Below are positions 27,918-63,979 of a DNA stretch of 63,979 nt, one piece after another. This DNA comes from an uncultured Gammaproteobacteria bacterium. GTDB taxonomy: Bacteria > Patescibacteriota > Patescibacteriia > Patescibacteriales > UBA12075. The notes under the pieces are model-generated. The model was not told the DNA's origin, ran no database searches, and worked only from the letters and a program-made list of their open reading frames with translations. Numbering within the stretch: position 1 is the stretch's first letter; every line of letters starts with the position of its first letter. The stretch spans positions 5,739 to 69,717 of the forward strand of contig CAYWNT010000010.1 in the NCBI GenBank assembly GCA_964459725.1. The letters run 5' to 3'. A program made the position numbers and the translations under genes.

Positions 27918-28880
27918 TTATTCTTTCATGTTTTTCCCGCTGTGAAATTTCTTATGCACGTCTCTTAGTTGCTTGTTGGTTACGTGAGTGTATATTTGAG
28001 TTGTTGCGATATTGCTGTGACCCAGGAATTCTTGCACTAGGCGAAGATCGGCTCCTTGGCCAAGTAGATCAGTAGCGAAGGAGTGCCTGAGGGTGTGAGG
28101 AGTAGCTGCTATCGGTAGACCTGCGATTTTAACGTACTTTTTTACAATATTCTCAATACTACGAGTGGTTAACCTTCTAGATTCATTTGTCTTGCTTACT
28201 CCAGGCTTGTAGTTCACAAAAAGAGCCTCATCCATGTCGTTTCGTTTGTCCAGATATCTTCGTAAAGCATCAACTGCTCTCTTAGAGAAATAAACAGTTC
28301 TCACCTTGTTTCCTTTGCCAACCACGGGTAATTCTAGGTCTGTAGTCGTCTTTTTTATTTTAAATTGCTCTCGATTCAGGTTAATTAACTCTTCGACACG
28401 TAAGCCTGTAGAAAAAAGCGTTTCAAGTATGGCTCTATCTCTTCTTCCGATTTTAGTTTTTGTGTTAGGGGATAGTAGCAACTTTTCAAGCTCTTCCAGC
28501 TTTAGAAACTTAACTTCCTTGCCTGACTTGTCCTTGGCTAGCTTTATCGAACTTGGGGAGAGTGAGGAAATCTTTTTCTCGACAAAAAACTCAAGAAGAC
28601 TTCGGAGGGCTATTAGGTAATAGTTTTGTGTGGATTTTTTCAAAGATTTTTTTGTTCTCGGATCTACATGTCTAGATAGGAAGACTCTGTATTTCCAGAT
28701 ATGATCGTCTGAGAGCTTGGTAGGAGGGAGAGAGGTGAGACTGCTGTCATTTAGCCATGTAAAAAACTTTGTAAGAAATCTCGAATAGTTTTCTTGGGTT
28801 TTTTGAGATAGCCCCTTTTCGATCTCTAGATAGTCAAGAAAGTCTACGAGGTATTTAGTTATAGGTTTATTTTTCTTCAT
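27918..28880 (-). CDS. XerC/XerD-family tyrosine recombinase
   Basis: 320 aa; SAM-like N-domain; HTLRHSFAT...LGHSNIATTQIYTHV catalytic signature. Confidence 0.9.
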   Translation of the reverse strand: MKKNKPITKYLVDFLDYLEIEKGLSQKTQENYSRFLTKFFTWLNDSSLTSLPPTKLSDDHIWKYRVFLSRHVDPRTKKSLKKSTQNYYLIALRSLLEFFVEKKISSLSPSSIKLAKDKSGKEVKFLKLEELEKLLLSPNTKTKIGRRDRAILETLFSTGLRVEELINLNREQFKIKKTTTDLELPVVGKGNKVRTVYFSKRAVDALRRYLDKRNDMDEALFVNYKPGVSKTNESRRLTTRSIENIVKKYVKIAGLPIAATPHTLRHSFATDLLGQGADLRLVQEFLGHSNIATTQIYTHVTNKQLRDVHKKFHSGKNMKE

Positions 28881-33561: not shown

Positions 33562-33706
33562 TTTTATGTAATATTTCTAAATTAAAAAATTAGTTCAATA
33601 GAACTACAATAGTAATATTGTATACTATTTCTCAAAAAAAATAAAGGAAAAATAAAAATTCTTCCTCTTTAGTAGTTAAATATCAATAAAATCAATTTTC
33701 TATAAA

Positions 33707-33740
33707 TGTGTACCTTTTAATGTACATTAAAAGGTACACA
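33707..33740. repeat. Perfect 34-nt palindrome
   Basis: TGTGTACCTTTTAATGT|ACATTAAAAGGTACACA. Confidence 0.9.
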
Positions 33741-33788
33741 TAAAAGACAAAAAACATATAATCTACCCTCAAAACTAATTATTTCCAA

Positions 33789-33826
33789 CTGTTGTAGATT
33801 TTGACGACCGTCAATATCTACAACAG
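33789..33826. repeat. Hairpin repeat copy 1
   Basis: CTGTTGTAGAT-TTTGACGACCGTCAAT-ATCTACAACAG followed by a T-run. Confidence 0.85.
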
Positions 33827-33859
33827 TCTTTTTTTGTTGTTTTATAGTGTGAAATCTAA

Positions 33860-34399
33860 TTAATTTAGTTTAAATTTACCTTTAAACAATAAATCATTGC
33901 TAATTTTCTCAACTATAAGTAGTACAACATACTTTTCAATGTTTAAACTTTTCACAAATCTCTGAATTTCATCAAAATCTGCCGTAGGATTTATCCAGAT
34001 ACTGTTTTGTAATAATTTATAACCAGAATCAACTAAGAAGACTCTAAGATGATTTCTTAATCTTCTTTTTTTCTCAGGAATATCAAAAATTACCACTCTC
34101 CATTTATTATCCCAATTATCTCTGTCGTCTTGATCTTTATGTTTGGCTTTCAACTTGAGTGCTCTGAGTATGCCCTTTTTAGTAAATCCTTCTTTTGACA
34201 CATAGCCAAATCTTTCGAGGTGATATATTTGCTGGTATATTCTTCTTCTCTCTTCGGCGTCTTTTATATCCTTCTCAATTGATTTATAATATTCCCAATA
34301 CCAAAACTTTTTTGAAGTGAGAGAAGCACTTGAAAGTCTCTCTAATCCATCAAGAAGGTCTAGCCAAATACTATCTACAGTTTTCATTTTTCTACTCAT
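33860..34399 (-). CDS. PaaX-like regulator (winged-helix N-domain + Cas2-fold domain)
   Basis: 179 aa; WRVVIFDIPEKKRRLRNHLRVFLVDSGYKLLQNSIWINP matches the PaaX/Cas2 beta-alpha-beta pattern. Confidence 0.6.
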   Translation of the reverse strand: MSRKMKTVDSIWLDLLDGLERLSSASLTSKKFWYWEYYKSIEKDIKDAEERRRIYQQIYHLERFGYVSKEGFTKKGILRALKLKAKHKDQDDRDNWDNKWRVVIFDIPEKKRRLRNHLRVFLVDSGYKLLQNSIWINPTADFDEIQRFVKSLNIEKYVVLLIVEKISNDLLFKGKFKLN

Positions 34400-34446
34400 A
34401 CATCACTAAATTAATCCATTTCCCATCCAAAACCACAAGTTTTTAA

Positions 34447-34486
34447 ATTGTTGAAGATTTGTGCGGTCGCACCATTCTACAACAAT
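34447..34486. repeat. Hairpin repeat copy 2
   Basis: ATTGTTGAAGAT-TTGTGCGGTCGCACC-ATTCTACAACAAT followed by a T-run. Confidence 0.85.
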
Positions 34487-34625
34487 TTGTTTTTTGTTGT
34501 TTGAATAATTTTTTATCTTTTTATCTCTTAATAAACTTTCAAAATTGTTTAATTTGGTCTCAGAAGAGTCTTTCTGATATTTTAGCACTACCTACATGAA
34601 GAAAAGTTAAAATTGAGCATCATAA

Positions 34626-34654
34626 AAATATACCGTTTTATTTCCACTATCGCA
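34626..34654 (-). promoter_or_regulatory. Promoter of the PaaX-like gene
   Basis: TTGCGA-N17-TATATT; the -35 box abuts hairpin repeat copy 3; hairpin copy 2 lies in the roughly 215-nt leader. Confidence 0.55.
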
Positions 34655-34692
34655 ATGTTGGGGATTTGTGCGGTCGTCAATATTCACAACAA
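34653..34692. repeat. Hairpin repeat copy 3
   Basis: AATGTTGGGGAT-TTGTGCGGTCGTCAAT-ATTCACAACAAT followed by a T-run. Confidence 0.85.
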
Positions 34693-34800
34693 TAGTTTTT
34701 GGTGATATTGAGGTGTTTGGGCAGGATTGAGGTTTTCGATTTGTTAGGGATTTTTTATTGTGAGAGAGTTTGCTTTAATGGGCTTTTCGTGAACTTTTGA

Positions 34801-34839
34801 ATTGTTGAGGATTTGTGCGGTCGTCTAAATCTACAACAG
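34801..34839. repeat. Hairpin repeat copy 4
   Basis: ATTGTTGAGGAT-TTGTGCGGTCGTCTAA-ATCTACAACAG followed by a T-rich tract. Confidence 0.85.
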
Positions 34840-34992
34840 CTGTTATTTTGTTTAGCCTTGTTTAGGTCGATGTCTATCATCATCTGATTTCTCCATTGCT
34901 AAAATTGATTTTTTTGTAGTTGACGTTATAAAGTTGCTTTTTAATCCCTGGTTTTTGAGCTCTTTTTTTTATTTCATTATTTAAAAAAGTTA

Positions 34993-35610
34993 TCACAAGT
35001 CTATTGTTTTTTTTAAAATTTTTTGAAATAATTTTTTATTATAAATACCTATTTTTTGTAATTTATATTTTGGAAAAATTGTTCTTAGATTTGTTTCAGT
35101 AAAAAATAAATCAACCACACCCTCTGTTTGTCCATAATTTAATTTTAGTTTTTTAACATTGTTATAAATAAGCAAATGAATCAATTCATGAGCTATTGTT
35201 TCGTTAGCACTCTTAATGTCTTTATTGTTTTTAACTCTCAAGCTAACAACATTTGGGAAGTTAAATTGCCCTTCCGGGCCATACAAGGAAATATTGCAGA
35301 CATATTTATATTTTGTTTTTAAGGTGTGATTTTCTAAGACATTAAAAAACTTTTTTTCAATTTTTCGCCAACTGTATTTTATTTGTTCTTTTTTTGATTC
35401 GTAACTATTTTTATTGTAAATTTTGTCTAGTTCCTTGTTTAGTTCTTTGGCGAAATTTTTTTTATTATTTTTATTTTTTTTATAAATTTTATCGTAAAAT
35501 TTAGGTAAGAATATAGGAAAATTATTATCAATAAACCACTGATATTCGTCATAAATATTCAATAATTTTTCTTTTTCTTTATTTTTCGAATATAGAAATT
35601 GTAACTTCAT
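34993..35610 (-). CDS. HExxH zinc-metallopeptidase-like protein, very A+T/Lys/Asn-rich
   Basis: AHELIHL motif; start moved to Met10, which sits 6 nt after a TATAAT box. Confidence 0.5.
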   Translation of the reverse strand: MKLQFLYSKNKEKEKLLNIYDEYQWFIDNNFPIFLPKFYDKIYKKNKNNKKNFAKELNKELDKIYNKNSYESKKEQIKYSWRKIEKKFFNVLENHTLKTKYKYVCNISLYGPEGQFNFPNVVSLRVKNNKDIKSANETIAHELIHLLIYNNVKKLKLNYGQTEGVVDLFFTETNLRTIFPKYKLQKIGIYNKKLFQKILKKTIDL

Positions 35611-35640
35611 ATTTGTATTATAACCTAAAATAAACAAAAT

Positions 35641-35680
35641 GAAAAACGACTAAGGCAGAGTGTGTGTCCGCTTTAGTCGT
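35641..35680 (-). terminator. Terminator of RiPP operon 1
   Basis: ACGACTAA...TTAGTCGT stem + T-run on the minus strand, right after the PqqD-like gene. Confidence 0.7.
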
Positions 35681-35685
35681 TGTCG

Positions 35686-35943
35686 TTAAATAAAGTCCGA
35701 TTCTTTTAATTGTGTTGTAATAGACAAAACTTCTTCCAGTGGATTTTTTACTGAAGGGAAAGTATTTCTGACTAACTCTTCAATTTCTTTTAGATTTTTT
35801 TTTCCTGTCATTTGTTTTACGATAAATACTCCAACTTCATTAAAGGTTAAAACGCCTTTGCCTTGAAAAAATCCAAGGAAACCATCAAGATCTTGTCTGA
35901 TTTTAAATCGACAGTTTATTTTGGGAATAAATTGATTATTCAT
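35686..35943 (-). CDS. PqqD-family peptide-binding (RRE-like) protein
   Basis: 85 aa; PqqD-like pattern (LTFNEVGVFIVKQMTGKKNLKEIEELV); ATGA overlap with rSAM stop. Confidence 0.65.
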   Translation of the reverse strand: MNNQFIPKINCRFKIRQDLDGFLGFFQGKGVLTFNEVGVFIVKQMTGKKNLKEIEELVRNTFPSVKNPLEEVLSITTQLKESDFI

Positions 35944-36950
35944 AATCGCCCCTCATTCTTTTGTTGAATAAATTCATCAGGAGCGTACATTCCACCATCA
36001 TAACATGAGGCTGAACATCCCCCGCCACAGAAATTATCGCATTCTCGACATTTCAAGGGTAGCCAGCCTAGAGATCGAAAGTGAGATAATTGCTTAGTCC
36101 ATATTTTGGTTAGCGGCGTTTCTAAAATATTACCGTAGCTTCCTTTGGCAATAGAACACGAACGAACATTACCCATGTGATCTATGTGTCCAAAACCAGT
36201 GCCCTGCCAACAACCAATTACGTAATCATGGTATTTAGCGGGGAGTAAGCACAAGGGAAAGGCGTCTCCAAAACTGGCTAAAATACCAAGTTCGTTTCGA
36301 ATTTTTTTTAGCTGAGGAAAAACTGACAAGTAGTCATGTAATGATAATTTAACTTGTTCCCAGTCAGATTTAGCTCGACCATAGGGAGTTAGGCGTCCCA
36401 CATTTATCTCATCTATTTCTATCCCTTTTTCTTTTAACCACCGACAAACATCAAAAACTGATTTATAATTATTCCTGGTTAATGTGTAAAGGATAGAGAT
36501 GCCGATACCGTTTTCTATGCAAGCTTGTATGCCACTTACTGCGTCCTCAAATGATCCAGTAATCTTCGTTATGTCTTCGTGGATCTCTTTTGTGCCGTGC
36601 AATGAAATAGCGCCACCAACAATGCGGTGATCTAATAATTTTTTCGCTGTGTTAGTATTAATGTGTGTGCCATTTGATACAAATGATAAGAAAAAATCCT
36701 GTTTATCAGCATATTCTAATACTTTTTGCCAATGTGGGTAAACAAAAAATTCTCCTCCAAACATCCTAACTTCAAAAACTTCTGCCTCGGCAAGCTTGTC
36801 TAAGATTGATGTAACCTGTTCAAATGAAGGATGACTTAATTTTTCGCATTCCATCTCTGCATTGAAGCAAAACTCGCAAGTCAAATCGCAAACAGGGCTT
36901 ACCTCAAAATTTACCGAAATAGGCGATTTCAGACTCACCAACTCGTTCAT
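35940..36950 (-). CDS. Radical SAM/SPASM-domain peptide maturase
   Basis: CDLTCEFC (CX3CX2C); C-terminal CRECDNFCGGGCSASC Cys cluster; start set at Met36 (36950), preceded by AAGGAGAG SD, so it no longer overlaps the precursor ORF. Confidence 0.85.
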   Translation of the reverse strand: MNELVSLKSPISVNFEVSPVCDLTCEFCFNAEMECEKLSHPSFEQVTSILDKLAEAEVFEVRMFGGEFFVYPHWQKVLEYADKQDFFLSFVSNGTHINTNTAKKLLDHRIVGGAISLHGTKEIHEDITKITGSFEDAVSGIQACIENGIGISILYTLTRNNYKSVFDVCRWLKEKGIEIDEINVGRLTPYGRAKSDWEQVKLSLHDYLSVFPQLKKIRNELGILASFGDAFPLCLLPAKYHDYVIGCWQGTGFGHIDHMGNVRSCSIAKGSYGNILETPLTKIWTKQLSHFRSLGWLPLKCRECDNFCGGGCSASCYDGGMYAPDEFIQQKNEGRL

Positions 36951-36972
36951 CTTCTCTCTCCTTGTGTGGTGA

Positions 36973-37008
36973 AGCTGGAGGAGTGAAACTTTTACCGCTC
37001 CTCCAGCT
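36973..37008 (-). promoter_or_regulatory. Precursor-maturase intergenic hairpin (operon 1)
   Basis: Perfect 11-bp stem AGCTGGAGGAG/CTCCTCCAGCT, 14-nt loop, no U-run; between the precursor stop (37024) and rSAM start (36950). Confidence 0.7.
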
Positions 37009-37023
37009 TGGTTTAAATGCTTA

Positions 37024-37149
37024 TTAGCAACACTTACAGGTGCATTGACCAGCACACTTCATTGCAGCCATCCGTATTGGAGTAAGCTGCGGTTGAACGC
37101 CTTTTAAAGTGCTAAACTTTGCCATTACGGCCTTGCTCTGAGATTCCAT
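37024..37149 (-). CDS. Candidate RiPP precursor peptide (41 aa, Cys-rich C-terminus), not in ORF track
   Basis: MESQSKAVMAKFSTLKGVQPQLTPIRMAAMKCAGQCTCKCC; AAGGAGGTGA SD upstream; own promoter; directly upstream of rSAM/SPASM gene. Confidence 0.7.
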   Translation of the reverse strand: MESQSKAVMAKFSTLKGVQPQLTPIRMAAMKCAGQCTCKCC

Positions 37150-37321: not shown

Positions 37322-37795
37322 TTATCCTGCGCCGGTTATGGAGTCTAGGATGAATTTTGTTATGGCGTAGGCGGAAAATACTATTACGAGGCCGATGGCG
37401 GCCCATACTAGTGTGTTTTTACCCTTTGTAACCATTTCACTGTTTCCTGCTGATAACATCCACATAAAACCACCGTAAATAAACATTGCCAAGGCTAATG
37501 AGCCAACAATTCCCAGAGCGCCGTTAATGACTTTACCGATAAAAGTATTTATATCGGGTGTTCCAGAAAGGGGATTTTTTAGAGTGACTGTTTCCGTACT
37601 GTCACCACTTTTAGGCTGCTTCCAATCGCAAAGATTATTTTCCTTACAATTTGTTTCACCTAAGACGCGACATGTGTTATAATCATCCGTACTATCAAAA
37701 TTAATAGCAATACACTTTGCATGTGTGTTATTTGCTAAAAAAAATAAGAAAAAAATAAAAATTAGTGCAAAAGTTGTGATAAATTTTAATTTCAT
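37322..37795 (-). CDS. TrbC/VirB2-type (T4SS pilin-like) membrane protein
   Basis: 157 aa; signal peptide, Cys-containing ectodomain, two C-terminal TM helices (GGFMWMLSAGN...VWAAIGLVIV). Confidence 0.6.
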   Translation of the reverse strand: MKLKFITTFALIFIFFLFFLANNTHAKCIAINFDSTDDYNTCRVLGETNCKENNLCDWKQPKSGDSTETVTLKNPLSGTPDINTFIGKVINGALGIVGSLALAMFIYGGFMWMLSAGNSEMVTKGKNTLVWAAIGLVIVFSAYAITKFILDSITGAG

Positions 37796-37860: not shown

Positions 37861-37889
37861 GTGGGTTCTTTTTTGAACACCTACCTTTT

Positions 37890-38174
37890 TTATCTAGCCA
37901 TTGCCAAAGTGGCGCTATATGGCTTAATACCTATTTCAACAATTACATTCTTTTTAGCACGGATTTTAAACTCCCTTAGATTGTTAGGAATTTTATCCCC
38001 AGCCCATACTCTAATAGGCTTTTCATTTCTTGGCAATAATTCATATTGGTCTTCGTTAACGCCGCTATAAAAATCATAATGAACTTCTTCGGTGAATCTG
38101 ATATAGTGATCAGTGTCAGTTCCTTCTCGCAAGCGGAAACCTGGATCGTCGCCTGGGCCGTAGACTTTGTAGTC
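37890..38174 (-). repeat. Near-identical 285-nt coding module, copy 1
   Basis: Aligned by eye to 39207..39491: 5 mismatches, all synonymous; the flanking terminator region is also similar. Confidence 0.9.
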
Positions 38175-39094: not shown

Positions 39095-39206
39095 GAGCTT
39101 AAAGTAAATTTTTATGAAAGATCTATCTTTTGTTTAAAATTAGCAAAATAAAAAAGGGAAGAAACTAAGTCTCTCCCCTTTTGTAGGTTTTTTGAACACC
39201 TCCTCT

Positions 39207-39491
39207 TTATCTCGCCATTGCCAGTGTTGCGCTATATGGCTTAATACCTATTTCAACAATTACATTCTTTTTAGCACGGATTTTAAACTCCCTTAGATTG
39301 TTAGGAATTTTATCCCCAGCCCATACTCTAATAGGCTTTTCATTTCTTGGCAATAATTCATATTGGTCTTCGTTAACGCCGCTATAAAAATCATAATGAA
39401 CTTCTTCGGTGAATCTGATATAGTGATCAGTGTCAGTTCCTTCTCGCAAGCGGAATCCTGGATCGTCGCCTGGGCCGTAGACTTTGTAGTC
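39207..39491 (-). repeat. Near-identical 285-nt coding module, copy 2
   Basis: See copy 1; constant offset of 1317 nt. Confidence 0.9.
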
Positions 39492-41480: not shown

Positions 41481-41509
41481 AATATAGCATATTTTAAGAT
41501 AAATGTCAA
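41481..41509 (-). promoter_or_regulatory. Promoter of the SPFH-like operon
   Basis: TTGACA-N17-TATATT. Confidence 0.7.
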
Positions 41510-41531
41510 GGATATTGTGTTGTTTTGACTA

Positions 41532-41578
41532 ATTTTAGATAAAAAAATACTGACCCATGGTTCAGGTCAGTATTTTTT
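41532..41578 (-). terminator. tyrS terminator (copy 1 of the 42-nt repeat)
   Basis: TACTGACC-N9-GGTCAGTA flanked by A7/T7; 41532..41573 is identical to 44361..44402. Confidence 0.8.
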
Positions 41579-41683
41579 TATTTAAACTTTCAATAAAGTA
41601 ATTATTACACCTTAGCACAATTGGAAAGCGGAAGTCTTGTGGAGTATTAACATTTTTCTTAAAATAGGCTCACCTTACCAGCT

Positions 41684-44324: not shown

Positions 44325-44360
44325 AAGATGAATGTCAGGGATAGTAGGCTGTTTTTAATT

Positions 44361-44402
44361 ATTTTAGATAAAAAAATACTGACCCATGGTTCAGGTCAGT
44401 AT
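44361..44402 (-). terminator. Terminator of 44450..45307 (copy 2 of the 42-nt repeat)
   Basis: Identical 42-mer ATTTTAGATAAAAAAATACTGACCCATGGTTCAGGTCAGTAT. Confidence 0.75.
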
Positions 44403-44449
44403 GTATTTTGTGATCTTTTTAAATTTTTCAATGATCACAAGTTTTGTTT

Positions 44450-56829: not shown

Positions 56830-58380
56830 TTATCGCTTCTTTGGAGTTACCCAAAAACCAAGATATTTCCCAAACATCAGTCGTGTCTGAGCCTCTAGTC
56901 CAGGAATTGCGCCAAAAATAATTATAGTAAATGGAAGAATTAACCACTGAAAAGGCATTAGCATTTTCTTTAAAAATGGATAATTTTTTGGTTTTTCAGG
57001 TAAAAGTAGATTTGAAATTATAGCAGACAAGACCATTCCAGACATAGCAAAGACCATCAAAGTTCTGGTAATTGTGGGAAGGTTGGTAGAAAGAGTTGAG
57101 GAATTGAAACTGTCTCCTCCAATCAACATCGGCAACCATCCAATAACACCAATAATAAGAGCGTTTGTGGCCCAAGAGTGAAATCCGTGCAGCTGAACCA
57201 TGAGCCTCCCTATCATTTTACCCTTAGGATATGTTTTCCAGTTCTTAATAACGTTAAAAAGTAAGTACGGCAAGTTCTCTACCCCCCAGCCCCATCTTCT
57301 CTGTTGCTTGTATAGATTGCGTGCAGCATCCATCGTCTTTTCATCCATACACACATCCATTGAAACCGGATAATGCATGGGCTCTACTCGATAGTCGCCA
57401 TTGTAATGGCAGAAGCAATGCCAGAATATTCTAGAATCCTCACTAACCATTCTAGTTGACCAGAAGTCGATATCAACCAAAGCGCGCCAAGTCATAGAGT
57501 GAGAAGAGTATGTGGCAAGCTTCTCCACTCTTATTTGTTGCATCATTTGCCAGAAAGTATTTGATGAAGCGGCAATTCGGGCAAAAAACTGTGCCTGCCA
57601 AAGATTATTGTGATAGACTGGGATCGGTTGATAGCTTGCTCGGTACGGATTTTCAACAGTTAGAAATTTATACATCAGACAATAAAAATAATCCTCATAA
57701 ATCACAGTATCTATATCAAAAACACTGACCAAAATCTTGTCATAATCATATCCATCTCTGTCTATTATATTTTTCTTTACCTCTCTGGCTGCCCAGGTCT
57801 GATTCGCGCCCTTGGCCTTGATCTCGCCCTCGATATTGTCCGGATGCACAGTTAGAACAAGCTCTTTAAATACGCCCTGGTACTCATCAATAATCTTTTT
57901 TGCCCCGTTATACGCTTCTTCTCCACCTCTCTCCTCTACGGTTATAACCATAATCATCCTGTCGGTCGGATAGGAAGACTTGGCAATGGCATCAATTGTG
58001 GGTCGAACAACTTCAGGGCCCTCCTGGTACATAGGCAGGATAATTAAGTGATAATAATCTTGCCATTTTTCATTCTCTTTTAAGTTGCTATTACCAGGAT
58101 TCAAGTTATGACATTTATCTTTCCAGTCCGTCCTGAGGCTGGCCTTAAGTTTTCTATAAGCCATAACCAGATGAATCCCTAGAAAAACAACCAACAATAA
58201 CCAATAAACATCAAAAGCGATTATAAAAAAGGATACCCAAATAGGTTTAAAGTATGACAAAACAGCCAACACAATCAATGTAAGCCATGATATAGCGCCG
58301 GGCATTATCTCTAATGCTCTATATAATTTTCTATCACGCCCCGAAAGGTCGCTTGCTTTACCTATTTTTAGATAATCCAT
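56830..58380 (-). CDS. Membrane-embedded family-2 glycosyltransferase (processive, cellulose/chitin-synthase-like)
   Basis: 516 aa; flanking TM helices, FDIDT, QQRRWGWG (QxxRW) motifs. Confidence 0.8.
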   Translation of the reverse strand: MDYLKIGKASDLSGRDRKLYRALEIMPGAISWLTLIVLAVLSYFKPIWVSFFIIAFDVYWLLLVVFLGIHLVMAYRKLKASLRTDWKDKCHNLNPGNSNLKENEKWQDYYHLIILPMYQEGPEVVRPTIDAIAKSSYPTDRMIMVITVEERGGEEAYNGAKKIIDEYQGVFKELVLTVHPDNIEGEIKAKGANQTWAAREVKKNIIDRDGYDYDKILVSVFDIDTVIYEDYFYCLMYKFLTVENPYRASYQPIPVYHNNLWQAQFFARIAASSNTFWQMMQQIRVEKLATYSSHSMTWRALVDIDFWSTRMVSEDSRIFWHCFCHYNGDYRVEPMHYPVSMDVCMDEKTMDAARNLYKQQRRWGWGVENLPYLLFNVIKNWKTYPKGKMIGRLMVQLHGFHSWATNALIIGVIGWLPMLIGGDSFNSSTLSTNLPTITRTLMVFAMSGMVLSAIISNLLLPEKPKNYPFLKKMLMPFQWLILPFTIIIFGAIPGLEAQTRLMFGKYLGFWVTPKKR

Positions 58381-58431
58381 ATATTATGAATAATATAAAC
58401 ACACTTTCCAATAAATGACAACATAAAATAT

Positions 58432-58460
58432 AAATATCCCGATTATTTCGGGATATTTAT
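58432..58460 (-). terminator. Terminator after the VirD4-like gene
   Basis: AAATATCCCG...CGGGATATTT. Confidence 0.65.
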
Positions 58461-58471
58461 TGATAAAATTT

Positions 58472-60319
58472 TTACAATCTTATTTCCTGGTCTTCTGTTA
58501 GCTCATTTTCTGATTTGGAGTTTTGTATATCTCTTTTTTTAGTCTCAGCCTGCTGATTGGGTTGTTTCCTGTTCAAATCTACTTTAGGCTTTGGAGGCTC
58601 TCTTCTTTCTTGAGTAGCTTTTTTTTCTGGAATAGTTACTTCTTTTTCCTTTGGGGTAACCACCTCTTTTTTTGCGCCTTTAAAATTAACCACGTTTTTT
58701 TGTGGAATATCACTTAGGCTGATTTTTTTTGGAGCAATAACTGGTGCTGGCTCAACCTCTTTTACAGTCCTGGGTGATATCGGGGCCTCTTTGGTCTTGT
58801 TAACTTTTCCAATATTTTCAATTTTGTTCTTTTTTTTCTCTCTAGCCTCGGAAAGGCAATCTTTGCAATACACTGGACGCACCCCATCTGGCTCGAATGA
58901 AAGTTTTGTTTCTTTGCCACAAGTTGAACAGTTGGCAGAATATTTATAAACATCGGGGTCTACTTTTTTCTTGGCACTCGCCTGGTTGCCGCTATAATCA
59001 TTTTGTATCACTTGATTCTTCGCTCCCCCTTCTTTGTTGTCATCCATGTGCCAACTAGCTATTTCCTCCTCAACTTGCACCCTATTCTTTGCATATTGTT
59101 CTCTACTGTTTTTTATAACTTTATCAATATTATGTGTTCTTTCGCCATCAGTCAAAGGCACCAAACCTCTGGCCGAAAAAGGCTCTGAAGCGACACCGTC
59201 TATCATTAATTTCAAATAAATTTCGTATTTAGGAAGATTCACAATGTCCTCCTCCATAAAAGTCGGCGAAAACTCAGGAGCTAGAGCCTCAGCGTCCCCT
59301 GCGCCAACTCGGAAAAGTATCAATGTGCCCACATTTCCAAATACGGCACTAGCAACTGTTTCAGGTAGCTGTTCTATGTACTGATGAGCTAAAATCAAAT
59401 TGAGTCTATACTTTCTAGCCTCAGAAAGAATGTTTGCAAAACTGTCTGTTGCAAAATTCTGAAACTCATCAACATAGAGATAAAAGTCTTTTCTGTCAGA
59501 CTCCTGTATATCCACCCTACTCATAGCGGCTAATTGAATCTTGGTAATTATCATAGCACCTAAAAGTGCGGAATTATCCTCACCTATTCTCCCCTTACTC
59601 AGATTTAAAATAAGAATTTTCCCCTCATCCATTATCTGCCGCATGTCTATAGTTGACTTAACTTGCCCAACAATATTTCTAATCAGGGCCACAGACAGAA
59701 ACTGCCCAACCTTGTTTTGAATCGGCGACACCGCCTCTGAGGCGAACTTATCATTGTATGAAGCAAACTCTTTCACCCAGAAGGCCTTCACAACAGGATC
59801 AGTAATATTCTCCACCACTTTTTTTCTAAATGCCTTATCAGAAAGCATCCTGGTAACAGCCAAGAGTGTTGCCTCTGGATAATCCAAAACAGCTAGAATT
59901 GCATTTCTTAAGATATATTCCAATCTCGGACCCCAGGAATCAGCCCATAATTTCTGAAACACACCAATAAGCCCTGAGGCCACCAAGTGTCTAAGGTGAG
60001 GTTCCACCTTCTCTACAACATTAAAGGCAATCGGGTTTTCATAGTCAGAAGGATTAAAGTAAACCACATCATCGATCCTGTCGTCAGGGATATATTCAAC
60101 AATCTTTTCAGCCAAGTCTCCATGCGGGTCAACCACGGCAACACCATGACCCGCTCTAATATCCTCGACTATCATGTTTTCCTGAATGGTCGACTTCCCC
60201 ATTCCAGTTTTTCCAATCAAATACATATGACGGCGCCTGTCGTCTCTTTTTATGCCGAACTTTTTATTCTCGTTTCGATAAGTTGTTTCAGCAAATATTA
60301 CTATTTCTTTTCTATTCAT
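58472..60319 (-). CDS. VirD4/TraD-like (T4SS coupling-protein-type) P-loop ATPase with C-terminal zinc ribbon
   Basis: 615 aa; Walker A GKTGMGKST, Walker B LYVDEFQNF; C-terminal CSTCG...CKDC and basic tail. Confidence 0.75.
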   Translation of the reverse strand: MNRKEIVIFAETTYRNENKKFGIKRDDRRRHMYLIGKTGMGKSTIQENMIVEDIRAGHGVAVVDPHGDLAEKIVEYIPDDRIDDVVYFNPSDYENPIAFNVVEKVEPHLRHLVASGLIGVFQKLWADSWGPRLEYILRNAILAVLDYPEATLLAVTRMLSDKAFRKKVVENITDPVVKAFWVKEFASYNDKFASEAVSPIQNKVGQFLSVALIRNIVGQVKSTIDMRQIMDEGKILILNLSKGRIGEDNSALLGAMIITKIQLAAMSRVDIQESDRKDFYLYVDEFQNFATDSFANILSEARKYRLNLILAHQYIEQLPETVASAVFGNVGTLILFRVGAGDAEALAPEFSPTFMEEDIVNLPKYEIYLKLMIDGVASEPFSARGLVPLTDGERTHNIDKVIKNSREQYAKNRVQVEEEIASWHMDDNKEGGAKNQVIQNDYSGNQASAKKKVDPDVYKYSANCSTCGKETKLSFEPDGVRPVYCKDCLSEAREKKKNKIENIGKVNKTKEAPISPRTVKEVEPAPVIAPKKISLSDIPQKNVVNFKGAKKEVVTPKEKEVTIPEKKATQERREPPKPKVDLNRKQPNQQAETKKRDIQNSKSENELTEDQEIRL

Positions 60320-60332
60320 AATTTTAATTTAT

Positions 60333-61886
60333 TTATTCAAAGGGTAGGTTTGAAGGAGGAGAACCTTTTTTCTCAACCTTGTCTTTTTTTATTGTCTCAA
60401 TGCTCTCTTTTGCTGCATCCTCCGTATTCACCATCTCGTCCTCTCCGCTCTCCACCTCCTCTTGGCCAGGTACTATCTTGTCGTATTTTTCTAGGCTACT
60501 GTTTATGTTGGTGTCGCTAAAAATACTGTCAGTTGCTTTTGTCTCACTAAATAACTTATCACTCTCAGCATCCTCAATAAGTGGGAGTGCCATAGGTGGT
60601 TCTGATTTTCTACCTGGAGCCTTCTGTATCATTGGAGCTTTTACAGCACCTTCAACAGGAAAATGCCAGAGAGTGGCTAACTCCTCAACACTCATATAGC
60701 CCGCCTTTCGTCCGCCAGAATAACTTCTGCCTTTATAGTTTTTCATTATCTTGTTTTTCTTCATGTTTATTCTCTGATCTTTAAAAAGATAAGCTCCGGT
60801 GGTGGCAGTGTAGGTCATGTCTGGCTTAAAGCTGTTTAAGTCATAATCAGTAAACTGCTTCATGTAGCCCACAAATCCGTTCACAGCCTTCGGCTTCACC
60901 ATTACGTCCTTTTTTGCTACATAGATCATTCTTATCTTGGCGCCAAAACCTATCTGGGAAATCTTGCGTTGAATTGCCTCTACCTGCTTTTTTTGCTTAG
61001 GTCTAAGATTCATCATTTGCAGAGGTTCGGATTTCTCTGGCTCTTTTGTCTCAATGTCGCCCCAAAGGCTATACACTGCCTCGCTGAAATTTTCTAAAAT
61101 TGACAAAAAAAACTTTATCATTTTATCAAAGATTGTTTCTGTCGGAGAATAATCGTTCATAATCTTCTTGATCTCGTCTTCACCAGGCTTGATATGATCA
61201 TCCAAGATTGGCAGTATTATAATTTGCTGCCAGAGTTGCTCTCCGGGTTTCAGACTACTACATAAATCCATAAGAGAGGCCATTGGGTCCTTGAACTGTT
61301 CCTCAGGCTTTCCAACGTCAGATAGAAAATCATTGTAAGTTTTTATCGGGTACCCTACAGGATCAGCCAACATAAACTCGGCGCCAAATAAATCATACTC
61401 GCTATCAGGGTATTTGTCTGGCATGTTTTCTGTGTAGTCATTTACCTCAGTAATTTCAGCATCCGGATACTGAGAGTAAACTGCTGACTCTATCAGGTTT
61501 CTATTTGCCTCTGGGGCATGAATCAAAAATTGAGTATATCCATCTATGCTGACAATTTCTAGACTAATTGTCAGTTGAAATTGTCCTTCCCAGTAAGTTT
61601 CTAGTAAATTTTTAGTTCCATGAGCGCCGGCTAAATATGAAAAAATATTCTCAACTGCTTTAGGTAATTGATTATTGCTTTTTGGTATATCAACAGCTAA
61701 TATTTTGAACTTTTGCTCTGATGCCCACTTATCCTGGATATAATCCATCCAAAGCTGAAAAACACCCCACAAAAACACCACCGCAATTGGCATCCAGCCA
61801 AAATTAAGCAGCAATGTCAAGAGCATCTGATCTGCTGGCATATTTAGTATACTGTAGAGCGACGACAAGTCTATTTCTAATTCCAC
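60333..61886 (-). CDS. Membrane-anchored hypothetical protein, partner of the VirD4-like ATPase
   Basis: 517 aa; GTG start in the track (internal ATG at Met16 possible); N-terminal TM helix pair. Confidence 0.6.
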   Translation of the reverse strand: MELEIDLSSLYSILNMPADQMLLTLLLNFGWMPIAVVFLWGVFQLWMDYIQDKWASEQKFKILAVDIPKSNNQLPKAVENIFSYLAGAHGTKNLLETYWEGQFQLTISLEIVSIDGYTQFLIHAPEANRNLIESAVYSQYPDAEITEVNDYTENMPDKYPDSEYDLFGAEFMLADPVGYPIKTYNDFLSDVGKPEEQFKDPMASLMDLCSSLKPGEQLWQQIIILPILDDHIKPGEDEIKKIMNDYSPTETIFDKMIKFFLSILENFSEAVYSLWGDIETKEPEKSEPLQMMNLRPKQKKQVEAIQRKISQIGFGAKIRMIYVAKKDVMVKPKAVNGFVGYMKQFTDYDLNSFKPDMTYTATTGAYLFKDQRINMKKNKIMKNYKGRSYSGGRKAGYMSVEELATLWHFPVEGAVKAPMIQKAPGRKSEPPMALPLIEDAESDKLFSETKATDSIFSDTNINSSLEKYDKIVPGQEEVESGEDEMVNTEDAAKESIETIKKDKVEKKGSPPSNLPFE

Positions 61887-63759: not shown

Positions 63760-63832
63760 GCGCCTATAGCTCAGTCGGTAGAGCAGCTGCCTTTTAAGCA
63801 GAAGGTCGCAGGTTCGAATCCTGCTGGGCGCA
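63760..63832 (+). tRNA. tRNA-Lys (anticodon UUU)
   Basis: 73 nt cloverleaf by eye: acceptor GCGCCTA/TGGGCGC, D arm GCTC-AGTCGGTA-GAGC, anticodon loop CTTTTAA, T arm GCAGG-TTCGAAT-CCTGC. Confidence 0.9.
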
Positions 63833-63843
63833 CCTTAAATTAT

Positions 63844-63877
63844 GCCATCTTAGCTCAGCTGGTTAGAGCAACTGTTT
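63844..63877 (+). pseudogene. Truncated copy of the tRNA 5' part found at 63946
   Basis: Identical to 63946..63979 over all comparable bases; downstream sequence cannot form an anticodon stem or T arm. Confidence 0.6.
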
Positions 63878-63945
63878 TGCTTCAGCCCCGCCGTTACTTG
63901 GTGATAGAGTTAAGGTGATTTAAAATTTACCCCACATTTTTTTGT

Positions 63946-63979
63946 GCCATCTTAGCTCAGCTGGTTAGAGCAACTGTTT
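63946..63979 (+). tRNA. 5' part of a tRNA gene, truncated by the window end (identity undetermined)
   Basis: GCCATCT-TA-GCTC-AGCTGGTTA-GAGC-A-ACTGT-TT: acceptor, D arm and 5' anticodon stem; the window ends here. Confidence 0.55.

Follow-up and report, generated by a model that had tools for sequence, protein, structure and literature searches.

Palindromes bracketing the genes of PaaX/Cas2-like proteins in Patescibacteria are probably the operators of small autorepressors

Why should a small gene for a protein with a PaaX/Cas2-like domain be enclosed by copies of one palindrome? The question is raised by a 63,979-nt stretch of contig CAYWNT010000010.1 (assembly GCA_964459725.1; this whole stretch is hereafter called the window), where a minus-strand gene encoding 179 aa lies among four copies of a 36-40 nt imperfect palindrome. 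A preliminary description had put forward three explanations: an operator array for autoregulation and for control of the neighbouring peptidase and ribosomally synthesised and post-translationally modified peptide (RiPP) genes, a family of elements like miniature inverted-repeat transposable elements (MITEs) that had trapped the gene, and terminators blocking antisense transcription. Comparison of this locus with its homologues leads us to a reading close to the first, namely that the palindromes are probably the cognate operators of a mini-PaaX autorepressor encoded between them. What was computed here is that gene and site go together, that conservation is specific to the site, that the site is symmetric in two parts, that each paralogue has a site of its own and, in one subgroup, that site and promoter overlap.

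The four palindromes are located at 33790-33825, 34449-34484, 34656-34691 and 34803-34838 (full extents of copies 1 and 2 in Table 1). When all 63,979 bases were scanned with a degenerate consensus only these copies were returned, where shuffled sequences are expected to give 0, and no further copy was present in ~25 kb of the same genome past both window ends, an extension reached via the end genes of the window. The confinement of the repeat to the surroundings of this gene, as first described by eye, was thereby verified. TGTTG, GAT, CGGTCG and ACAACA are common to all four copies. The inverted core of copy 1 was also confirmed: its best match to copies 2-4 is on the opposite strand, and its plus-strand centre reads CGACCG versus CGGTCG in the others. 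Repeat spacing is irregular (659, 207 and 147 nt). Copy 2 and copy 1 are the standard bracket of the family around the gene, as set out below, and copies 3 and 4 lie with copy 2 in an ORF-poor spacer (ORF, open reading frame). A similar spacer with several upstream copies was found in locus L070, and flanks with multiple copies also in L003, L006 and L010. Five other contigs carrying the gene were 100% identical to the window.

The repeat had been presented as a hairpin, which is correct for two copies only. Copy 1 (-22.9 kcal/mol, z -7.8) and copy 2 (-17.0 kcal/mol, z -3.1) were the only good hairpins, and copies 3 and 4 folded no better than shuffles (z -0.95 and -1.35), so that sequence, not pairing, is what is kept. 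The T-rich runs noted on the plus strand are indeed present after all four copies; on the gene strand there is an A-run before the hairpin instead of a T-run after it. A terminator scan of the region returned 0 sites, and the palindromes had no match in an Rfam search. The candidate promoter abutting copy 3 (TTGCGA-17-TATATT, 34655-34627) is a 9/12 consensus match, of which the region contains 14 versus 8.6 +/- 2.6 expected. Since such matches are only slightly more frequent than chance predicts, this promoter is putative, and with it the 215-nt leader.

To what kind of protein do these sites belong? Residues 94-165 matched the Pfam family PF20803 PaaX_M ('PaaX central Cas2-like domain') with E 2.3e-21 and 76 bits against a cut-off of 24. 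Cas2 models matched the beta1-alpha1-beta2 stretch weakly, TIGR01573 just above its cut-off (26.8 vs 24.5) and the Pfam model PF09827 below it (17.1 vs 23.8), and PADLOC gave weak Cas2 matches only (E 1e-6 to 3e-2). The PaaX equivalog TIGR02277 scored 32 bits against a cut-off of 264.55. No Pfam match to the PaaX N-domain PF07848 was obtained at E ≤ 1, though the N-half of the AlphaFold2 (AF2) model is helical with a beta-hairpin (predicted local distance difference test, pLDDT, 41-81). The model as a whole (pLDDT 78.6 overall, >90 in the C-domain) consists of three helices, the beta-hairpin, a long linker helix and a ferredoxin-like domain. A Foldseek search with it placed E. coli PaaX (8a39) at the top with 143 columns aligned, followed by many Cas2 structures and VapD. 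Structure prediction and profile comparison thus agree with the PaaX/Cas2 fold that had been recognised by eye.

The PaaX_C effector domain is missing, the protein ending at residue 179. D97, IFDIPE (104-109), R115, R119, Q131, S133 and F176 are invariant across the family alignment; the family has retained the Cas2 signature, which is lost in E. coli PaaX, where the stretch reads LLLSEGL. Gene neighbours in the window are leuS, murA and a radical S-adenosylmethionine (radical-SAM)/PqqD/HExxH cluster, with no paa genes. No cas gene was detected by Pfam among the ORFs within ~4 kb either side, the remaining window ORFs not being individually scanned, and the window contains no CRISPR array (regularly spaced repeats). 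The 179-aa protein is not a true PaaX, having neither the effector domain nor a paa context, and with neither an adjacent cas1 nor an array it does not qualify as a CRISPR Cas2 either. One arm of copy 1 is similar to the 3' end of the Cas12a repeat (ACTGTTGTAGAT); we took this likeness as chance, as it is absent from the other copies and no cas gene was found among the neighbouring ORFs scanned.

Homologues of the protein share 41-61% identity with it, a more distant set comes in addition, and all have ~180 aa. The motif R[IV][VI]IFDIPE, run against the species genomes of GTDB, picked out 564 relatives, most named records being Patescibacteria/Candidate Phyla Radiation (CPR) lineages; some third-party annotation (TPA) metagenome-assembled genomes (MAGs) among them are nominally 'Gammaproteobacteria'. 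An exhaustive profile search gave 4,303 clusters at 50% identity (E ≤ 1e-10), and 2.9 million viral contigs (IMG/VR) contained no relatives. Genomes often carry several paralogues, 38-71% identical within one genome, and no near-identical copies were seen among them. In NCBI records some members (e.g. P0008 and P0036) are called 'CRISPR-associated endonuclease Cas2', a name that the marginal pass of TIGR01573 probably explains. Our literature search found nothing that connects PaaX to Cas2, to Patescibacteria or to the CPR. These proteins form a large, apparently undescribed family of Patescibacteria winged-helix/Cas2-like proteins, with genes bracketed by their own 38-bp palindromes.

Gene neighbourhoods are unrelated between loci, the 159 immediate neighbours falling into 127 clusters, and the gene itself is therefore the only constant partner of the sites. 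Among these 159 there was no conserved partner gene such as an ATPase or an antitoxin; nor did the neighbours in 80 other loci, which are unrelated, point to a link with paa genes. The downstream neighbour was convergent in 39/82 cases. Synteny is kept within lineages, for example in a Daviesbacteria-type group. One cluster of four neighbours, tried as a conserved partner, turned out to consist of different class-I aminoacyl-tRNA synthetases. A gene of this class adjoins the family gene in 4 of ~80 loci (the window, L013, L017 and L081); it encodes LeuRS in the window, and the others are tentatively of ValRS and IleRS types, judged by their N-terminal sequence. This suggests adjacency above what we would expect by chance, though numbers are small.

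The arrangement seen in the window proved to be a property of the family. The same site, with at least 26/34 identity, was present on both sides of the gene in 72/84 homologous Patescibacteria MAG loci, compared with 2/249 mismatched pairings in which the upstream and downstream flanks were taken from different loci. Palindromes under a strict definition (centre C[GT]NN[AC]G and at least 10/14 arm pairs) were found in 53/87 upstream and 48/87 downstream flanks versus 13/644 (2%) background windows, at a median of 20 nt ahead of the start and 12 nt past the stop. The downstream site is conserved as strongly as the upstream site, and the two centres are separated by a median of 646 bp in the family and by 659 bp in the window. 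The two flanking copies matched better inverted in 29 loci, better direct in 38 and equally well in 17. Those of the window subfamily are inverted and near-identical (L008 34/34, L010 34/34, L004 31/34, L011 33/34); a fixed terminal-inverted-repeat rule, which holds there, fails family-wide. Each paralogue in one genome has its own palindrome, as in L035, L053, L058 and L084. The reader of a site would therefore be paralogue-specific, and a shared host factor is unlikely.

Copies beyond the bracket were also encountered. Locus L003 (1536-5830) has seven palindrome copies, one of them a half-site only, one per successive intergenic gap of a co-directional run that comprises ABC2, MFS, GH130, the family gene, a 215-aa gene and DUF6879; we read this set as a local regulon or, alternatively, as an array resembling cassettes. 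Metagenome contigs scanned for the window repeat gave three hits: one solitary related palindrome on two contigs (L087/L088) and one chance match. The solitary palindrome (TTGTTGTAGATTTGCGCGGTCGCGCATATTTACAACAA, L088 3935-3970, also in L087) is very like the window repeat, and no family gene is detectable on its 5.6-kb contig. In the flanking DNA each 950 kb contained roughly 7-15 far palindrome copies, a rate compatible with several further targets per protein elsewhere in a 1-Mb genome, so that 'regulates only itself' would overstate the case.

The sites are bipartite, with a conserved centre and lineage-specific outer blocks. Median site length is 38 bp, with the outer blocks ~30 bp apart, and the identity between upstream and downstream copies is confined to ~16 nt each side of the centre. 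The centres group into a few classes: CGATCG (41 sites), CGACCG/CGGTCG (26), CTATAG (19) and CGGCCG (12). Arm pairing starts at 0.97-0.86 beside the centre, dips to 0.64-0.72 over positions 3-6, recovers to 0.83-0.96 over positions 7-14 and drops after 16. Arm mismatches were G-T in 48 and A-C in 40 cases, without an excess of sense-strand wobble, and a T-run followed only 3/48 downstream and 2/53 upstream palindromes. From the lack of wobble excess and the rarity of T-runs it follows that the symmetry belongs to the DNA duplex and not to the transcript. Hexamers resembling a -10 box were present in 19/53 upstream and 11/48 downstream sites, compared with 18.5% of random 40-mers.

Protein and site tend to vary together. 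The alignment column most informative on the class of the centre is residue 132, the x of LQxS between Q131 and S133, which is D in 14/14 CTATAG loci and K in 21/28 CGATCG loci; CGGCCG is accompanied by Q, E or S. Several switches of this residue appear on a neighbour-joining tree. Outer-arm similarity climbs with N-domain identity (from 0.32 to 0.67), and inner-arm similarity does so less (from 0.33 to 0.43). A link to the promoter comes from seven Daviesbacteria-type orthologues with proteins 81-91% identical. Their upstream flanks have diverged except for one island, TTGACA-16-TACAAT-8-ATG, whose 16 nt include CGATCG, and the palindrome covers both promoter hexamers. Read from this layout, the mRNA would have almost no leader or none at all. 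In 6/7 of these orthologues conservation is just as high for the downstream palindrome at the stop codon.

On these grounds we favour the autorepressor. A dimer of the protein would lie along one 38-bp site, its two winged-helix domains reading the lineage-specific outer blocks (TGTTG...CAACA in the window, ~30 bp apart) and its Cas2-like dimer core placed over the conserved centre (CG-AC/GT-CG in the window). Upstream sites that overlap or abut the promoter would give negative autoregulation. The downstream site might cooperate with the upstream site across the ~650-bp gene by looping, or might, when bound, act as a roadblock that shields the gene against transcription from its neighbours. 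Extra sites between the gene and the co-directional upstream operon are what copies 3 and 4 would then be. We infer that the protein binds, that it represses and what the downstream site does. Of the operator array first proposed, the autoregulatory part is supported by the family-wide bracket. Control of the peptidase/RiPP genes is not: that operon has copies 3 and 4 at its 3' end and no copy near its 5' end.

Several observations weigh against this conclusion. Phylogeny partly confounds the correlation of residue 132 with the centre, and D is found alongside CGAYCG centres as well. When the C-domain was controlled for, the partial correlation of the outer arm with the N-domain was in the expected direction but weak (r 0.12 vs 0.07). 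Across the family there is no common register of -35 and -10 relative to the palindrome centre, and in the window subfamily no convincing promoter overlaps the palindrome, copy 2 ending 46 nt before the ATG. Upstream and downstream sites show no helical phasing (Rayleigh p 0.3-0.6), and a downstream site is without precedent in PaaX biology. Finally, the strict retention of Cas2 residues that are lost in E. coli PaaX (D106, E109, R115, R119, Q131 and S133) hints at more than a scaffold role for this domain.

The retained Cas2 residues also count in favour of a quite different explanation, in which recombination or transposition takes place at the palindromes and the gene with its flanks is a small mobile or excisable cassette. 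The Cas2-like domain, its acidic and arginine residues intact, would then cut or join DNA at the centre, and solitary palindromes would be empty sites or footprints. Unrelated gene contexts between lineages, the inverted near-identical flanking copies of the window subfamily, the array-like succession in L003, the palindromes found without a family gene nearby (L087/L088 and the far copies) and the likeness of arms around a 6-bp centre to recombinase core sites would all fit such a cassette. We nevertheless hold it to be quite unlikely, because the orientation of the flanking copies is variable, the paralogues are old, synteny is held within lineages, none of the 2.9 million viral contigs carries a relative, and a centre that covaries with a protein residue is more readily explained by recognition than by a crossover region. 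A comparison of leuS for an empty site was uninformative, since even the closest LeuRS relatives share no more than 70% and 67% identity and differ in synteny. The MITE-like family proposed at the outset is not supported, the repeat being tied to a gene family with diverged paralogues that have their own palindromes, in variable orientation and without viral copies. A further proposal, that the Cas2-like domain is more than a scaffold for dimerisation and reads and perhaps nicks or cuts the 6-bp centre of a repeat-sized palindrome and that the bracketed gene is a self-contained excisable or invertible cassette or a protein-DNA boundary unit, we also consider unlikely, if somewhat less so. If it were true, a Cas2-fold protein would act sequence-specifically on palindromic repeats outside CRISPR, with implications for how the partnership of Cas2 and repeats arose and for the organisation of transcription in gene-poor CPR genomes.

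Some Cas2 and VapD proteins have been reported as ribonucleases, and the repeats could be imagined as RNA hairpins, either terminators against antisense or read-through transcription or processing and stability elements of untranslated regions, possibly cut or bound by an RNase-like Cas2 domain. The strong folding of copies 1 and 2 and the T-rich runs in the window speak for this. It is made very unlikely by the shuffle-like folding of copies 3 and 4, the empty terminator and Rfam searches, the absence of a wobble bias in the arm mismatches and by pairing that is weakest at positions 3-6 from the centre hexamer, the inner part of the would-be stem; with T-runs so rare across the family, the suggested antisense-blocking terminators are not supported either. 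The remaining alternative is a role outside ordinary gene regulation: a boundary or insulator, a nucleation site for a spreading or bridging protein in the manner of ParB/parS, or a toxin-like nuclease restrained by its DNA-binding half. Sites that bracket the gene whatever the orientation of the neighbour, the lack of an effector-binding domain, the many orthogonal paralogues per small genome and the relation to VapD toxins agree with such a role. It is improbable in our judgement, given that no partner gene such as an ATPase or antitoxin accompanies the family, that PADLOC yields weak Cas2 matches only, and that in one subgroup the upstream site is exactly in the core promoter, as a plain autorepressor needs.

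How does the autorepressor reading compare with known systems? The E. coli PaaX operator is TGATTC(N27)GAATCA, 39 bp, and PaaX represses its own promoter (Px) by steric hindrance (PMC9493321). The family resembles it in the order of putative winged-helix N-domain and Cas2-like domain and in its long-spaced palindrome of 38 bp. It differs in the size of the protein (179 aa in the window versus 316 aa) and the lack of the PaaX_C domain for the effector phenylacetyl-CoA, in the invariant IFDIPE, in the absence of paa (phenylacetate) catabolic genes nearby, and in sites that have a conserved centre besides the outer half-sites and flank the gene on both sides. With Cas2 and VapD the family shares a ferredoxin-like beta-alpha-beta-beta-alpha-beta domain with the signature hhhFDI ... 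R ... R ... G ... Q-S-hW; unlike Cas2 it is fused to a DNA-binding domain, and unlike a CRISPR the irregularly spaced window repeats enclose a gene rather than spacers. A promoter-proximal operator with a second site several hundred bp off, around or within the transcribed region, is known from lac O1/O2, gal and deo. In the family the second site differs in directly following the stop codon of the gene that encodes the regulator, as a family-wide rule, and the putative looping is not accompanied by helical phasing.

A small single gene bracketed by short imperfect palindromes, often inverted, and in some genomes (L003) with extra copies in nearby gaps, is also reminiscent of the transposases associated with repetitive extragenic palindromes (RAYT/REP). 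Unlike RAYT, the family has no HUH or catalytic tyrosine among its invariant residues, which are the D, E, R, R, Q and S of the Cas2 signature. Unlike REP, the window palindromes are not dispersed, all 4 in ~90 kb being at the gene, and each paralogue has a palindrome of its own. The same lack of dispersed copies in ~90 kb, together with variable orientation, paralogue divergence and an identity that stops at the palindrome edge, sets the arrangement apart from MITEs and small transposons. Intrinsic terminators differ by the T-run, which is rare after the family sites, and none was returned by the scan.

Patescibacteria genomes are very small, and to our knowledge few regulators have been characterised in them. 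The family offers many natural protein-site pairs with diverged specificities, each gene carrying its presumptive binding site on both flanks. It constitutes a compact, testable model of protein-DNA recognition and a data set for a recognition code, in which outer blocks can be compared with the winged-helix domain and the centre with residue 132, and it is a possible source of orthogonal repressor-operator pairs. The label 'CRISPR-associated endonuclease Cas2' on some members is a probable annotation error that can now be corrected. New here is, above all, the family-wide arrangement of a gene with flanking palindromes. The question raised is why a regulator should need a conserved site past its own stop codon.

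Table 1. Positions of the gene, its palindromes and the adjoining operon in the window.
Feature	Position	Strand	Remarks
Copy 1, downstream site	33788..33827	.	33 nt past stop codon; 40-nt palindrome, 18/19 arm pairs; centre inverted vs copies 2-4
179-aa gene	33860..34399	minus	N-half helical, winged-helix-like; residues 94-165 PaaX_M (Cas2-like) domain; motifs WDxKWRxVIFDIPE, R115, R119, LQxS
ORF-poor spacer, 593 nt	34400..34992	minus	between co-directional upstream operon and gene; contains copies 2-4
Copy 2, proximal upstream site	34445..34488	.	ends 46 nt ahead of ATG; centre 659 bp from copy 1 centre
Copy 3, extra upstream site	34656..34691	.	outer TGTTG/CAACA blocks, GAT and centre kept; arm pairing degraded
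Copy 4, extra upstream site	34803..34838	.	start 147 nt from copy 3 start; 155 nt from end of 214-aa HExxH gene
214-aa protein	34993-35637	minus	HELIH motif, no Pfam hit
PqqD-like 85-aa protein	35686-35943	minus	
Radical-SAM/SPASM enzyme	35940-37055	minus	
41-aa ORF	37024-37149	minus	ends KCAGQCTCKCC

The minus-strand RiPP-like cluster at 34993-37149 looks like a maturation set of the ranthipeptide or sactipeptide type. Between copy 1 and the leuS start (33561) there is a perfect 36-bp palindrome with no loop (ATGTGTACCTTTTAATGT/ACATTAAAAGGTACACAT, 33706-33741), which could be another operator or a bidirectional hairpin; it occurs once in the window, and its sequence has no relation to that of the four repeats. 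Further repeats occur elsewhere in the window. A 286-nt direct repeat of 98% identity (37889-38174 and 39206-39491) forms the 3' parts of two adjacent minus-strand genes, of 334 aa with tetratricopeptide (TPR) repeats and of 377 aa, and a related 47-nt repeat is found just downstream of each. An 84-nt repeat of 87% identity (41496-41579 and 44325-44408) has a terminator-like hairpin, ACTGACC...GGTCAGT, at its end, followed by Ts. A XerC/D-type integrase is encoded at 27918-28880. Type IV secretion-like genes are located in 37322-37795 and 56830-61886, including a VirB2/TrbC-type pilin, a TrwB/TraG-like coupling ATPase (58472-60319) and DUF8128. A tRNA cluster (63760-63979) that runs off the window end consists of tRNA-Lys (63760-63834) and two tRNA-like 5' halves (GCCATCTTAGCTCAGCTGGTTAGAGCA) at ~63843 and 63945.

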